From a virus (Duplodnaviria; Heunggongvirae; Uroviricota; Caudoviricetes): a stretch of 64,000 bases of DNA. Under the pieces are notes generated by a model. It was not told the DNA's origin, made no database searches, and saw only the letters and a program-made list of their open reading frames with translations. Positions within the stretch are counted from its first letter, which is position 1. Each line of letters starts with the position of its first letter. Where the stretch lies: the IMG/VR virus record IMGVR_UViG_2579778606_000002, positions 1-64,000 of that record; one strand, given 5' to 3'. The translations under genes were made by a program, and so were the position numbers. Positions 1,392 to 31,511 of the stretch are shown here, one piece after another.

Positions 1392-1685
1392 ATGTGGCGC
1401 GGTAATAATCATGGCAGAAGCCATATGATACTTACCGAATATAAGCTAGACCACAAAACCAATAAATCGCGCTCAGTATATTTGCTCCGGCACAATAGCC
1501 GCGTAAGGAATACCGTGCTGGAGCAAAATCTGACCGTTGAAATGGATAATTTCGGGAATTTCAAGCCAACAATATCGCTTGATGATTTCCCTCGTGGTTT
1601 AAGCGAAAGAGAAGCAATGCTGAAGTTAGCAGAATGGCTACAAAGATTGAGCATTGTTATTGAAGATAACTGGAGTCAACCATAA
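1392..1685 (+). CDS. hypothetical protein
   Basis: ATG at 1392 preceded by GGAG 5 nt upstream; ORF track start 1386 is GTG. Confidence 0.4.
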   Translation: MWRGNNHGRSHMILTEYKLDHKTNKSRSVYLLRHNSRVRNTVLEQNLTVEMDNFGNFKPTISLDDFPRGLSEREAMLKLAEWLQRLSIVIEDNWSQP

Positions 1686-13600: not shown

Positions 13601-13610
13601 TATTAGAAAA
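13601..13610 (+). promoter_or_regulatory. operator-like motif variant TATTAGAAAA (followed by TTAATATT) upstream of lpa-like gene
   Basis: Intergenic 13524..13630. Confidence 0.4.
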
Positions 13611-13630
13611 TTAATATTAACTTACTAACA

Positions 13631-15040: not shown

Positions 15041-15117
15041 TGGTGGCCCCTACCGGACTTGAACCGGTGACCGTGCGATTATGAGTCGCCCGCTCTAACC
15101 ACTGAGCTAAAGGGCCA
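15041..15117 (-). tRNA. tRNA-Ile2-like (anticodon CAU; could be read as Met without lysidine modification)
   Basis: Reverse complement GGCCCTTTAGCTCAGTGGTTAGAGCGGGCGACTCATAATCGCACGGTCACCGGTTCAAGTCCGGTAGGGGCCACCA folds as cloverleaf; anticodon arm GGCGACTCATAATCGC like E. coli ileX. Confidence 0.7.
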
Positions 15118-15544
15118 GATTACTGTTAATTACGCTTACGCTTTTTGCCAGAACCGCGTAAGGCTTTTGCCGCTTGCTCTACCCCGTATGCAACCACCAG
15201 CAGAAACAATAATGTCCACTCCGGGTTTTTATCGGCAAACGCCCAAAAATCCATCACTTGCAGCCACCTTTTAAGACAAACGCCATTGCTGTTAGGTTGC
15301 GGTGCCGGGTGCCTCCCGGTGACGTTAACCAGTTAACAATTAACGCCGGATCACTTATGGATTCTCGTTACGCCAGTAAAAAGACCACCTTTACTGTTTT
15401 AACTGTTCCGCGTGCGCTTAGCCGCATTCACCGCAATGGTAAGAGCATTTGGCTGACTGGGCGGCGATGACGCCTGTACGCATTTGGTGATCCGGTTCTG
15501 CTTCCGGCATTCGCTTAATTAGCCAAATACTCTTAACGTTGCGA

Positions 15545-15631
15545 TGGCGGAGAGTAATGGAATCGAACCATCATCGCTTGGGCGACGGGACGGTTTTCAA
15601 GACCGCTTGAGCACCATGCTCCCTACTCTCC
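15545..15631 (-). tRNA. class II tRNA, probable tRNA-Ser (anticodon UGA); D-arm atypical
   Basis: 7-bp acceptor GGAGAGT/ACTCTCC, discriminator G, CCA, anticodon loop CTTGAAA, long variable arm, T-loop TTCGATT. Confidence 0.45.
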
Positions 15632-15872
15632 AGTGATTGTGGTGGTCGGTGCTGATCTCCGACTGCGCCTCTTTTTTTCATAGCCCATAAGGCCGGTCAG
15701 TGCGCTTGATGACTGAGGCATCGATATTTACTACGCCGCCTCGTTGCCATAGGGCGGACTTGCGCGCCAGCAACGCGCATTCACCACAACGGTAAGGGTA
15801 CTTCGTAGGGATTCGAACCCTCTGCCAAGCACGGCGATCTCCGACGTCGCAAAATACCCTTACCTGTTGTGT

Positions 15873-15948
15873 TGGTGCCGGTTAACGGACTCGAACCGCT
15901 GACATCCTGCTTACAAGGCAGGCGCTCTACCAACTGAGCTAAACCGGC
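15873..15948 (-). tRNA. tRNA-Thr (anticodon UGU)
   Basis: GCCGGTTTAGCTCAGTTGGTAGAGCGCCTGCCTTGTAAGCAGGATGTCAGCGGTTCGAGTCCGTTAACCGGCACCA; canonical cloverleaf. Confidence 0.8.
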
Positions 15949-15952
15949 AATT

Positions 15953-16039
15953 TGGTGGGGAGTGATGGAGTCGAACCATCCGAGTCGCAATGACAGTAGA
16001 TTTACAGTCTACCCCGCTACCCCTACGGACTAACTCCCC
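15953..16039 (-). tRNA. class II tRNA, probable tRNA-Tyr (anticodon GUA)
   Basis: Acceptor GGGGAGT/ACTCCCC, anticodon arm GTAGACTGTAAATCTAC and variable arm similar to E. coli tRNA-Tyr; D-arm imperfect. Confidence 0.55.
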
Positions 16040-16044
16040 TAAAT

Positions 16045-16121
16045 TGGCGATGGTGGGTGGATTCGAACCACCGACCGACAGCTTAGAAGGCTGCTGCTCT
16101 ATCCTACTGAGCTACACCATC
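16045..16121 (-). tRNA. tRNA-Arg (anticodon UCU, reads AGA)
   Basis: GATGGTGTAGCTCAGTAGGATAGAGCAGCAGCCTTCTAAGCTGTCGGTCGGTGGTTCGAATCCACCCACCATCGCCA; canonical cloverleaf. Confidence 0.75.
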
Positions 16122-17434: not shown

Positions 17435-17464
17435 ATGTTAGAAAGATAATTTTAGTTTTCTAAC
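17435..17464. promoter_or_regulatory. inverted pair of operator-like motifs TGTTAGAAAG-N10-TTTTCTAACA
   Basis: Two half copies in opposite orientation at the 3' end of gene 17468..18676. Confidence 0.4.
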
Positions 17465-28800: not shown

Positions 28801-29028
28801 AAAAGCCCCGGCCAGGCCGGGGCATCACACTTCAAGTTACGATCCAATCATTACCGACTGCATCCGCCGTCGATAAATCGACTTCCCGGATCTGGCATCC
28901 ATTAATACAAAACCATCCGGTAGTAGAGCAATTATCAGGCCAGATCCATATACCAACACTCCATGCTTTACGGCAGCACACTTCAGCCTGTCCTTCCCTG
29001 ATTTTTTTTACCGCCTGCATGATGTCCA

Positions 29029-29736
29029 TCACTCGCCTCCCCAACCGATCACCTGGAATTGTCCCATCCTTGGGTGATACCAGCGTTTTCCTCGGTGTTC
29101 AGCCTCCGACATCATCAGGGTAAAGGCATTCATGAAGGGAGATAAGGCCACAATAGTACGACGCGACAATACCCCCTCTGGCGTCAAAAACTCATGCGTA
29201 TCTGTGGGAATCCGGTAAGCGTTGACCAGGTTACGGCATTTGGCTTCAGTCAGGCCACATTTCGCCGCTAACTGGCGATAGCCAATGTAACCTTCTGGCA
29301 TGTTGCCCTTCTTGATCTGCTCGACGGTTTCAGCAACCTGGCTAACCTTTGACTCAACAACATGAAGCCGCTTTTGCTGCTGAACTGCATTTGCAGCCAT
29401 TGCAGCGATCATCTCTATTTCGGTCAACGGCTGGCGTACTTGTTCTTCCAGTTCGCGCCAGCGGTCCACCAGCCGGGCGGTGAATTCGGGAGAGAGCTGC
29501 GCAACGACGATAATGCTATCGCGCTTGCCTTGCTCGCCTTCGAAGACGTAAGCCTCAACACTACGTCGTAGTCCTAAGTTATTGATTTTTTCGAAAACCT
29601 CAATTTGAGGACGAACAATAACGCCACCTTTGTCTAATGTCTCAATAGTGCGTTTCACATTGTCATGACGTTTTCCCACCAGCTCCGCGATCTCAATGCT
29701 GGTCATTGATGGCTTTTCGAGAATGCAGATATCCAT
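29029..29736 (-). CDS. ant: Rha-family regulator / putative antirepressor (Ant-like)
   Basis: N-terminal TSIEIAELVGKRHDNVKRTIETL matches phage Rha domain; ATGA translational coupling with upstream icd-like ORF as described for P1 immI. Confidence 0.5.
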   Translation of the reverse strand: MDICILEKPSMTSIEIAELVGKRHDNVKRTIETLDKGGVIVRPQIEVFEKINNLGLRRSVEAYVFEGEQGKRDSIIVVAQLSPEFTARLVDRWRELEEQVRQPLTEIEMIAAMAANAVQQQKRLHVVESKVSQVAETVEQIKKGNMPEGYIGYRQLAAKCGLTEAKCRNLVNAYRIPTDTHEFLTPEGVLSRRTIVALSPFMNAFTLMMSEAEHRGKRWYHPRMGQFQVIGWGGE

Positions 29737-29960
29737 CAGTGAGACTCCGCAATGCCGGGATTGGTAATATTGCGATACCAGGGATTGGTGTTTGGTTGTG
29801 GGGAAGTAGAGAAACGACCAGTGAGAACGCCATACTGATCAGGGATCAGAGAACGGGCTTCTTTTTCAGTTGCGGCAATTGCGAAGTGATCGCAGTGTTT
29901 TTGCAGGGAGTGAAAACGCCAGATGAATTCTGGACGTGAGCAAGGATTGGCATTAACCAT
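29736..29960 (-). CDS. icd: small ORF in icd position (74 aa), translationally coupled to ant
   Basis: GAGG 8 nt upstream of ATG; stop overlaps ant start; size equals P1 Icd (73 aa); assignment by architecture not sequence. Confidence 0.35.
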   Translation of the reverse strand: MVNANPCSRPEFIWRFHSLQKHCDHFAIAATEKEARSLIPDQYGVLTGRFSTSPQPNTNPWYRNITNPGIAESH

Positions 29961-30019
29961 AGTTACGGCCTCACTAACAGGTTTAACAACCTGCTACCCG
30001 CTGCTAAACAGGTGGCAGG

Positions 30020-30110
30020 ACGTGACGGGGTTAGCAGACTGGCGTTAGTGAAACCAGCAGGCCGAAGCCTCCCCATCACGCCCCACCATAATTTGGGCGT
30101 AACGCGGTTT
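30020..30110 (-). ncRNA. c4: candidate C4-like antisense RNA (contains a'/b' elements CACTAAC … CTGCTAAC complementary to two flanking target pairs)
   Basis: Minus-strand RNA would carry CACTAAC and CTGCTAAC (30030..30050) complementary to GTTAGTG / GTTTAGCAG copies at 30156..30183 and 29972..30013 (the latter just upstream of icd RBS); boundaries approximate. Confidence 0.4.
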
Positions 30111-30290
30111 TACGGACACAAAAATACCGCAATATCGGATATCTGCGGTTGTCCGCACTAACATTCAGGCTGCTAAACCCGGTCGCAGAATTTGCTACGA
30201 CGGCATGAATATAAGCCTGAACATTAGAAAGATCAACAGAATTTTTATCAGATGCTGTTTTTTAGTGACGATATAAATCATACATTCTTG

Positions 30291-30319
30291 ATTAGAAACA
30301 TCAATTTAATTTTCTAACA
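30291..30319. promoter_or_regulatory. operator-like motifs (ATTAGAAACA and TTTTCTAACA, inverted pair) upstream of the immI-like region
   Basis: Motif copies in intergenic 29961..30376. Confidence 0.45.
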
Positions 30320-30376
30320 TACATTTTCGAGCGATGAAATTCCCGCCGCACGGTTATTGTACAGTCAATCGCAACA

Positions 30377-31339
30377 TCATCCCCGAAAGCCCTCCGGAAT
30401 TGACCAGTCTTCCCGGTCAAATTCAGACCGATAGCCACGCTGTTTCATCAGGTCAAAGGCTTCACCAATGGTTGCACACCCCTGGGAGCCAGAATAATCC
30501 ATTGAGAAATCCAGGGCACTGGATTGTTTAGGCTTATTCACTGCTGTAGCGGCACTACGTATCCATGCAAATTTTTTTGCCAGCTTTTCAGCGGTACGAT
30601 ACAGAGCCTGCCGTTTTGCGTGCCCCTCATCTGAACGACGCTTTGCAGCTCTCGCTTTTGCCGCCGCCAGGCAGTGGTTGGTATGTTCTTCCCTGATTAC
30701 TGGTTTTTTATCCAGACCCCCATTATCCGCTTGAGAACTATCTGCTGGTGAAGCCTTTGGCTGAACCGCGCATGATCTTTCTCTTCTTTTGGCTATAGAG
30801 TGACTCTTATTTTCTATTGGCTGTTCATTTTGAACATGGGGGGACTTGTTCAATTTGAACAGGGGGTTCCCAGTTTCAAAAAAATAACGAACCTTTGAAA
30901 TCAACTGCTTAACCAGTTTTGTGGCGTTGGCAAATTTGATGCCCTGCTTACTCCCTATCTCCATTGCTACATGAATGAAGTGGAGAAATTGTGTTGTAAA
31001 CCGGTACACGTTACACACCTGAGCATTGTTATTCGCTACCTGATGCTGCTTAACAAGCATTCCGCACTTCGTCGCTTCGGCAAATGCCCGGCGCACAGTA
31101 GAAATACTGCGTCCTGTAATCTCGGACATATCCGCATATGAGCGACGGATCATGTATTCATCGGTAGCTCCTGCCAGGTTGGCGAACTCGGCAATAATGG
31201 CGCTATGTGAAGGGGAAAGAAAACCGCTATGACGAGCAAAAAAACTCAACTGATGACCTTTGATTTTTTTGTGGTATTCAGTGTTGTTTTTATACTCAGA
31301 AGTGTTGAAAGTAACTGAAACTGAATTTAAAATACTCAC
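30377..31339 (-). CDS. HTH DNA-binding protein, 320 aa (function unknown; replication or regulatory)
   Basis: HTH-like MSEITGRSISTVRRAFAEATKCGML; basic Lys/Arg/Ala-rich middle region. Confidence 0.5.
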   Translation of the reverse strand: MSILNSVSVTFNTSEYKNNTEYHKKIKGHQLSFFARHSGFLSPSHSAIIAEFANLAGATDEYMIRRSYADMSEITGRSISTVRRAFAEATKCGMLVKQHQVANNNAQVCNVYRFTTQFLHFIHVAMEIGSKQGIKFANATKLVKQLISKVRYFFETGNPLFKLNKSPHVQNEQPIENKSHSIAKRRERSCAVQPKASPADSSQADNGGLDKKPVIREEHTNHCLAAAKARAAKRRSDEGHAKRQALYRTAEKLAKKFAWIRSAATAVNKPKQSSALDFSMDYSGSQGCATIGEAFDLMKQRGYRSEFDREDWSIPEGFRG

Positions 31340-31511
31340 CAGATAGTTCCGTGAAAAATCTATCTACCGTATAAATCTATGCCAGTGGATTTATACACCC
31401 AAAAGCCGCTACTCAGCGGCTTTTGCTTTTTTTGGCAGTCGCTACCGGAGCAGTGACCGCGATCCTACTCGATCACGTGCCGTCGGATCAACAGTGTATA
31501 AAAACACACTG

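Follow-up and report, generated by a model that had tools for sequence, protein, structure and literature searches.

A probable C4 antisense RNA immunity cassette of the P1/P7 type in a D6-like plasmid prophage of E. coli

Since 1990, C4 has been a textbook example of an antisense regulator; in phages P1 and P7 it keeps the anti-repressor gene of the prophage silent and is regarded as the determinant of immunity specificity. The antisense RNA and the immI operon of both phages were reportedly described by Citron and Schuster in 1990 and 1992, and Biere, Citron, and Schuster are said to have found in 1992 that Rho-dependent polarity reinforces C4 repression in P1. Summaries of the C4 mechanism in P1 and P7 are available (PMC8198154, PMC12197685, PMC8546580), and the 5′ end of C4 is cut by RNase P in these phages, according to the citation of Hartmann et al. 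1995 in PMC11143913. An equivalent architecture has been described for the Salmonella prophage Gifsy-1, where IsrK is a short RNA that arises by partial termination at a leaky terminator. Read-through gives a transcript with an RNA of about 80 nt, STnc1160, that is released by processing, then a small ORF and an anti-repressor gene coupled to it in translation; IsrK acts in trans to activate translation of the downstream orf45-anrP anti-repressor operon (PMC4825925). The same paper went no further than to suggest that IsrK might be related to a C4-like repressor RNA (PMC4825925). Homologues of c4, icd, and the anti-repressor have been described on a D6-like Salmonella plasmid, and a second c4/icd copy has been described for pYU39_89 (PMC6799933).

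The window, which is the whole stretch of 64,000 nucleotides that was analyzed, contains on its minus strand a region that we interpret as an immI-type immunity cassette in a D6-like plasmid prophage, a P1 relative, of E. coli, with a probability of about 0.9 for this reading. The Rfam C4 model (RF01695) matches the minus strand at 30093..30008 over its full length (model positions 1-87) with 70 bits against a gathering score of 45, and the c4-a1b1 RNA motif (RF03163) is found at 30214..30162 on the same strand with 53.9 bits against a gathering score of 46.7; both calls hold in local and in whole-window Rfam scans. The initial annotation had proposed the a1b1/c4(a′b′)/a2b2 layout of the P1/P7 immI region for this locus and had suggested an alignment with P1/P7 c4 as a check. 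The two Rfam matches bear out the layout, as does a four-way alignment in which the P1 features a1, b1, c4, a2, b2, and the promoter P1c4/P51b are matched column for column, and over 30236..29805 the window shares 87-90% identity with the c4-icd regions annotated in P1 and P7. When the ends of the annotated P1 c4 misc_RNA are transferred to the window, they define a predicted mature C4 antisense RNA of 77 nt at 30087..30011 (minus strand), which differs from the C4 of P7 at 2 bases, from that of P1 at 3, and from that of D6 at 8; the processing site and the 3′ tail ending in GCCACC are identical in the window and P1. The evidence therefore supports the earlier reading of the region as a C4 antisense RNA cassette of the P1/P7 type. 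No second c4/icd copy was found in the window by an Rfam scan of its whole length, blastn of the region, or tblastn with Icd. A match to the Rfam mir-1231 model (21 bits against a gathering score of 80) was dismissed as chance.

The element that carries the cassette is well represented among sequenced plasmids. Over 29000..31400 the window matches complete plasmids of E. coli, about 89-95 kb in size, with an identity of up to 99.8%, NZ_CP098907 being an example of a 99.8%-identical plasmid. About 100 complete E. coli plasmids have the same arrangement, with 94-99.8% identity, whereas identity to phage D6 is 88.5% over 30334..29700. The flanking genes (repL-like, pro, prt, a CHAP-domain gene, and a darB-like gene) are in the D6 order, which, together with the near-identical plasmids, identifies the window as part of a D6-like plasmid prophage. 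A c4 feature is absent from the annotation of the D6 record and of the near-identical RefSeq plasmids.

At its mature coordinates, the predicted C4 RNA has a minimum free energy of −44.9 kcal/mol, and a fold offset by one base has −40.7 kcal/mol with a z value of −4.2. The predicted structure consists of a 17-bp closing stem, two hairpins, and a 3′ ACC tail, and its helices are 99.9-100% paired across the 52 distinct sequences among the matches listed. Both antisense segments had been expected to lie in loops. This is the case for b′ (CACTAAC, CACUAAC in the RNA; 30050..30044, minus strand), which occupies a 9-nt loop in the second hairpin, but a′ (CTGCTAA, CUGCUAA in the RNA; 30037..30031, minus strand) is placed in a 7-nt single-stranded junction of the multiloop rather than in a loop.

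The sequences complementary to these segments lie on either side of C4 on the same strand. Upstream, a1 (GTTTAGCAG, 30178..30170) contains the core TTAGCAG (30176..30170), which is of the P7 type and complementary to a′, and b1 (GTTAGTG, 30162..30156) is of the P1 type and complementary to b′. Downstream, a2 (TTAGCAG, 30007..30001) begins 4 nt past the predicted 3′ end of C4, and b2 (GTTAGTGA, 29978..29971) overlaps the icd Shine-Dalgarno sequence GAGG (29972..29969), whose last base precedes the icd ATG (29960) by 8 nt; both a2 and b2 align with the annotated P1 sites of the same names. The a and b halves are separated by 7 nt in a1b1, 6 nt in b′a′, and 22 nt in a2b2. A bipartite target in two minus-strand copies had been noticed previously, at coordinates that prove good to a few bases, and the segment between the copies had been taken as an exact complement of both halves. 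The complementarity is indeed exact for 7 + 7 nt, and reaches 8 nt for b′/b2, but it does not extend to the full 9 + 8 nt that had been claimed, since CTGCTAAC is unpaired at its 8th base and TGTTAGTG at its leading T. When both strands of the 64-kb window are searched, TTAGCAG-N5-35-GTTAGTG is found three times against 0.02 expected from shuffles, and all three matches fall within 29972..30176, where the minus strand has two of them and the third is the complementary copy; CACTAAC-N3-20-CTGCTAA has 2 matches in the window against 0.00 expected from shuffles.

The first of the two targets is embedded in a conserved structure of its own. The c4-a1b1 motif forms two hairpins, the second of which presents a1 in its loop, and its helices are 99.5% paired, with compensatory changes, in the 52 distinct sequences among the matches listed. 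Between a1b1 and c4, the fold contains an intrinsic-terminator-like hairpin (CCGCA...TGCGG, 30148..30127) followed by TATTTTTGTG, the whole element extending over 30148..30117 on the minus strand. This hairpin was missed by a simple terminator scan because its loop exceeds 8 nt, but pairing in its stem is 100%, divergent loci having compensatory changes there, and it coincides with the terminator stem of the Rfam isrK model. The location of a terminator before c4 suggests that C4 synthesis would depend on read-through. The isrK model (RF01394, an Hfq-binding RNA) itself aligns to a1b1 and the terminator together (30201..30120) with 46 bits, and since its gathering score is 50, the region is not filed as an isrK member. 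Elsewhere the model gives 46.5 bits for D6 and 35.1 bits for P1, whereas in an Stx2 prophage it passes with 67 bits, and the isrK of that prophage is directly 5′ of a C4 that scores 83.6 bits. The predicted architecture resembles that of IsrK, STnc1160, and orf45-anrP, and by this analogy a1b1 would most likely be a short IsrK-like transcript that adjusts the amount of free C4 as a decoy or anti-antisense RNA.

Two promoter-like sites precede the leader on the minus strand. The one at 30236..30208 (TTGATC, 17 nt, TATATT), identified by a scan, is homologous to P1 P1c4/P51b and aligns with that annotated promoter (TTGACC...TATAGT). The upstream site at 30304..30277 (TTGATG, 16 nt, TATGAT) is put forward from its match to the consensus, and it is the positional analogue of P1 P2c4/P51a; its −35 hexamer is inside a palindrome, TTAGAAA-N12-TTTCTAA, at 30292..30317, the position that Op51/Oc4 has in P1. 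An exact copy of the palindrome is present at 17438..17463 and a copy with one mismatch at 13603..13628, making 3 copies in the window against 0.36 expected, and the palindrome is conserved in D6 also. The sequence 5′ of the P51b-like promoter is unrelated to P1, and the P1-type C1 operator (ATTGCTCTAATAAATTT, allowing up to 3 mismatches) is found nowhere in the window. Among the matches listed, 94 related loci have the P1-type C1 operator and 20, of the D6 type, have the palindrome, the two never being found together; for each, the distance to c4 is constant, and they occupy equivalent places upstream of it. In view of its recurrence, the mutual exclusion with the P1 operator, and the fixed distance, the palindrome qualifies as a good operator candidate for a D6-type C1 repressor, as a functional counterpart of Op51.

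The leader is followed by an icd-like gene of 74 codons (29960..29736, minus strand), the product of which is a homologue of P1 Icd (61% identity over 61 amino acids, E = 8e-27) and belongs to PHROG 1426 (E = 7e-39); D6 and the near-identical plasmids carry the annotation “host cell division inhibitor Icd-like protein” for it. The next gene (29736..29029, minus strand) encodes a putative anti-repressor of 235 amino acids that belongs to the Rha family (Pfam PF09669, E = 6e-9); like P1 Ant1, it matches PHROG 63, “anti-repressor Ant”, in its case with E = 4e-48. BLASTP detects no significant similarity between the 235-residue protein and P1 Ant1, and the D6 counterpart is annotated as “anti-repressor Ant, similar to HK97 Roi”. 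The pair had been identified initially as icd-like and ant, a description that is appropriate for the Icd homologue and, in terms of family, for the second protein, but the latter, which from its family annotation and position is a putative anti-repressor, is not an orthologue of P1 Ant1/2. The stop of icd was also said to overlap the start of ant in the sequence ATGA. That 4-base overlap belongs to P1; in the window, the junction is TGATG (29738..29734), and a single nucleotide, base 29736, is shared. The same TGATG junction recurs at the end of ant, whose stop is overlapped by 1 nt by the ATG of an ORF of 65 codons (29029..28832, minus strand), a hypothetical protein in the annotations of D6 and of the 99.8%-identical plasmid, which is probably the last gene of the operon.

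The complementarity was compared across related loci that were collected from IMG/VR with an exact 25-nt seed in the C4 body. This gave at least 120 loci, or 124 with the window, D6, P1, and P7 included, but because the seed samples close relatives only and many of the loci share ancestry, the locus counts that follow are not counts of independent events. The six elements were all readable in 116 loci among the matches listed, and in 115 of these the four 7-nt pairings (a1/a′, b1/b′, a2/a′, and b2/b′) are all perfect; conservation of the complementarity in related phages, on which the initial annotation had made its proposal depend, is thus observed. Two a types and six b types are present in the 116 listed loci, in 11 combinations, and five of the b types are each seen with both a types; the combination present in the window, a(P7) with b(P1), accounts for 11 of the 116. 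A third a type and a seventh b type are found in two more divergent loci among the matches listed. The combinations occur alike on P1-type (Ant1) and D6-type (Rha with upstream repL) backbones. In the 52 distinct sequences among the matches listed, pairing is 100% for a1/a′, 99.7% for b1/b′, and 98.4% for both a2/a′ and b2/b′, with two-sided changes at 4, 6, 2, and 6 of the 7 pairs, respectively. The survey is strong comparative support for a1b1 as a real partner of C4.

These data allow a more general, if tentative, proposal, namely that the a and b segments constitute a combinatorial two-part specificity code whose parts reassort freely; we regard this as possible but doubtful. If it were correct, the a(P7)/b(P1) combination of the window would represent an immunity class distinct from those of P1 and P7, perhaps with partial cross-repression, and a1b1, since it is always kept matched, would serve all P1-like phages as a functional anti-antisense module of the IsrK kind. 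Duplex energies calculated for the C4 segments with the P1, P7, and D6 targets were set aside as too crude to predict cross-immunity. The a′ segment of the window also pairs with UAGCAG of the a2-b2 spacer, so that the P1 target seems equal to its own target.

Alternative explanations of the repeated motifs must be weighed against this background. Chance is untenable in view of the number of distinct pair types and of control alignments in which the partner was slid by 1-3 columns, where pairing falls to 33-54%. It could be argued that the a and b motifs are DNA sites, two direct and one inverted, for a co-evolving DNA-binding protein rather than RNA partners, since an inverted DNA repeat equally predicts the b′-a′ order and the three-way co-variation, and complementarity at the DNA and RNA levels is formally inseparable from sequence alone. 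However, the spacing of the halves (7, 6, and 22 nt) is a poor fit to one rigid protein site, the middle copy falls precisely on the loop and junction left unpaired in an RNA that folds strongly and is recognized by a curated covariance model, b2 coincides with the ribosome-binding site, and published work on P1 and P7 assigns the function to an antisense RNA; we therefore find the DNA-site explanation scarcely credible. The view that the cassette is an inactive remnant of a defective plasmid prophage could draw on the rearranged ImmI regions of many P1-like plasmids (PMC6906374), but it is very improbable for a locus in which the promoters, the terminator, the C4 fold, and 7 + 7 nt of complementarity at both targets are all intact, in which the icd, ant, and orf65 reading frames are open, and whose arrangement is so well kept among complete E. 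coli plasmids (94-99.8% identity in about 100).

A narrower alternative concerns a1b1 and accepts that C4 and a2b2 work as in P1. According to this, a1b1 would be merely a folding element of the precursor that acts in cis, or a leftover duplication that gene conversion keeps matched, and would have no IsrK-like role in trans. It should be recognized that the P1 record labels a1 and b1 as “putative” target sites, that the isrK model remains under its gathering score in the window (46 against 50 bits), and that experiments on a1b1 of P1-like phages were not found in the searchable literature. A purely structural role is nevertheless unlikely, although it deserves more weight than the DNA-site and remnant explanations, because a1b1 is complementary to a′b′ in 52 of 52 distinct sequences and 11 combinations among the matches listed, because a conserved hairpin loop displays a1, because the conserved terminator that comes next would yield an RNA of about 80 nt, and because the homologous IsrK works in trans.

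The preferred reading, an immI-type cassette with C4 as its antisense RNA and a1b1 as a partner of C4, can be formulated as a mechanism in which the steps of processing, translational repression, and polarity are modeled on P1/P7 and the decoy role of a1b1 on Gifsy-1. The present analysis itself establishes the sequences with their complementarity and covariation, the predicted fold, the family membership, and the homology of the genes. The minus-strand leader would start at the P51b-like promoter and probably also at the upstream promoter that is overlapped by the candidate repressor operator, and it would consist, in order, of a1b1 with the intrinsic terminator, the 77-nt tRNA-like C4, and a2b2 with the icd ribosome-binding site. 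Free C4 would be cut out of read-through transcripts, and its a′ and b′ segments would pair with a2 and b2 of the operon mRNA. With the Shine-Dalgarno sequence overlapped by b2, icd would then remain untranslated, and the block to its translation would keep the translationally coupled Rha-type anti-repressor silent, with polarity as a possible reinforcement. The a1b1 RNA would pair with the same segments of C4, a′ and b′.

Since both the system and the type of element are known, the finding as such is already known: the cassette is real yet ordinary and adds nothing new in principle to the biology. The a/b combinations, the mixture of a(P7) with b(P1), the link between a1b1 and IsrK, and the D6-type operator candidate are of modest interest and may have been described previously. 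What the analysis adds lies in the two-segment combinations that co-vary at three places, the connection of a1b1 and its terminator with IsrK, and the candidate for a D6-type operator. The annotation of the locus should be supplemented with labels for c4 (as an antisense RNA), a1b1, icd, and the Rha-type anti-repressor. These points bear on the question of which phage-plasmids of the P1/D6 kind, in which resistance genes are frequent, can coexist in one cell or superinfect it.

Among the known systems, the immI regions of P1 and P7 have the same order of elements as the window, with a promoter followed by a1b1, a terminator-like hairpin, a 77-nt C4, a2b2 with the Shine-Dalgarno sequence, icd, and a coupled anti-repressor, and the nucleotide identity of 87-90% extends from the P51b-like promoter into icd. 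Outside a′ and b′, the C4 body is identical except for one linked base of a stem. The window differs from both phages in mixing a P7-type a (TTAGCAG/CUGCUAA) with a P1-type b (GTTAGTG/CACUAAC). It also differs from P1 in that a Rha-family protein of 235 amino acids takes the place of Ant1/Ant2, the icd/ant junction is TGATG instead of ATGA, and the palindrome and an unrelated control region are present upstream where P1 has the C1 operator Op51; in P1 repL is downstream of kilA, whereas in the window it is upstream of c4, with neither kilA nor sim.

The similarity to D6 extends to the whole neighborhood, since both have prt, pro, repL, the c4 leader, icd, a Rha-type ant, an orf, a CHAP-domain gene (annotated in D6 as a lysozyme), and darB. 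The candidate palindromic operator is likewise shared with D6 and with D6-like plasmid prophages such as pYU39_89. D6 differs in having a P1-type a site and a b site of its own (ACTTACG/CGUAAGU), and these types account for the 8 of 77 bases at which its C4 differs from that of the window. The IsrK/STnc1160/orf45-anrP system of Gifsy-1 likewise places a short 5′ RNA with a leaky intrinsic terminator ahead of an RNA of about 80 nt that is processed, a small ORF, and the coupled anti-repressor, an order also predicted for the window from its sequence, but the small ORF is orf45 in the one and icd in the other, and IsrK has been described as an activator that acts on mRNA structure. The CI RNA of satellite phage P4 (seqA/CI/seqC), as summarized in PMC4825925, is similar in being processed from the leader of the operon under its control and in pairing with two complementary sites, upstream and downstream of itself; it has no sequence or Rfam relationship to C4, however, and it acts through premature transcription termination and not through occlusion of a ribosome-binding site.

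The palindrome TTAGAAA-N12-TTTCTAA occurs three times in the window (0.36 expected), at 30292..30317, upstream of c4, and at 17438..17463 and 13603..13628; two of the three copies are exact and one carries a single mismatch. Among the loci listed, all 20 of the D6-type have this palindrome in the position upstream of c4 that is taken by the C1 operator in P1-type loci, and 94 P1-type loci have the P1 operator instead of the palindrome. No P1-type C1 operator is present anywhere in the 64-kb window. The palindrome is a candidate for the operator of the D6-type C1 repressor.

At the other end of the cassette, a 65-residue open reading frame of unassigned function (28832..29029, minus strand) follows the Rha-type anti-repressor gene, and its ATG shares one base with the anti-repressor stop codon (TGATG). 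The identical junction joins icd to the anti-repressor gene; therefore the operon probably consists of three translationally coupled genes, icd, the anti-repressor and the 65-residue frame, as judged from these overlaps. Directly upstream of the c4 leader, and on the same strand, is a repL-like lytic replication gene (30377..31339, minus strand), whereas the repL gene of P1 is located downstream of both ant and kilA; with the D6 arrangement it is possible that transcription reads through from repL into the c4 leader. The window also contains four clustered tRNA genes (15044..16121, minus strand; Rfam tRNA, 44-75 bits), and such clusters are usual in P1/D6-like phages.

Among the 116 listed loci in which all six elements were parsed, only one, L044 (IMGVR_UViG_2565956613_000015), has a mismatched set: its b1 and b' are ACGAATG and CATTCGT, whereas its b2 is GTTAGTG. 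Its c4 region is near a contig end; either the locus arose by natural recombination and escapes b pairing, or the mismatch comes from a chimeric assembly at the end of the contig. Two other IMG/VR loci, L064 and L106, are more divergent in sequence and keep the entire cassette architecture. The a type of L064 (TTAGTCG/CGACTAA) is the third observed, and the b type of L106 (GTTCAAG/CTTGAAC) is the seventh; the terminator stems of both show compensatory changes, and neither the palindrome nor a P1-type operator is present upstream of either cassette.

The a1b1/C4 cassette of the window is shared with a lambdoid prophage, the Stx2-converting phage Stx2a_1447 (L126), where a tandem of isrK (67 bits) and C4 (83.6 bits) occupies 1437..1625. 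This tandem falls within a 1152-nucleotide coding sequence annotated as "antirepressor", the start of which is probably mis-called. Within the a2-b2 spacer of the window (29991..29996, minus strand), UAGCAG provides a 6-nucleotide match to the P7-type a' (CUGCUA) and could be an additional C4 contact in elements with that a' type, including the window. The same hexamer is present in the spacers of P1 and P7, but D6 has UCGCAG at this position.
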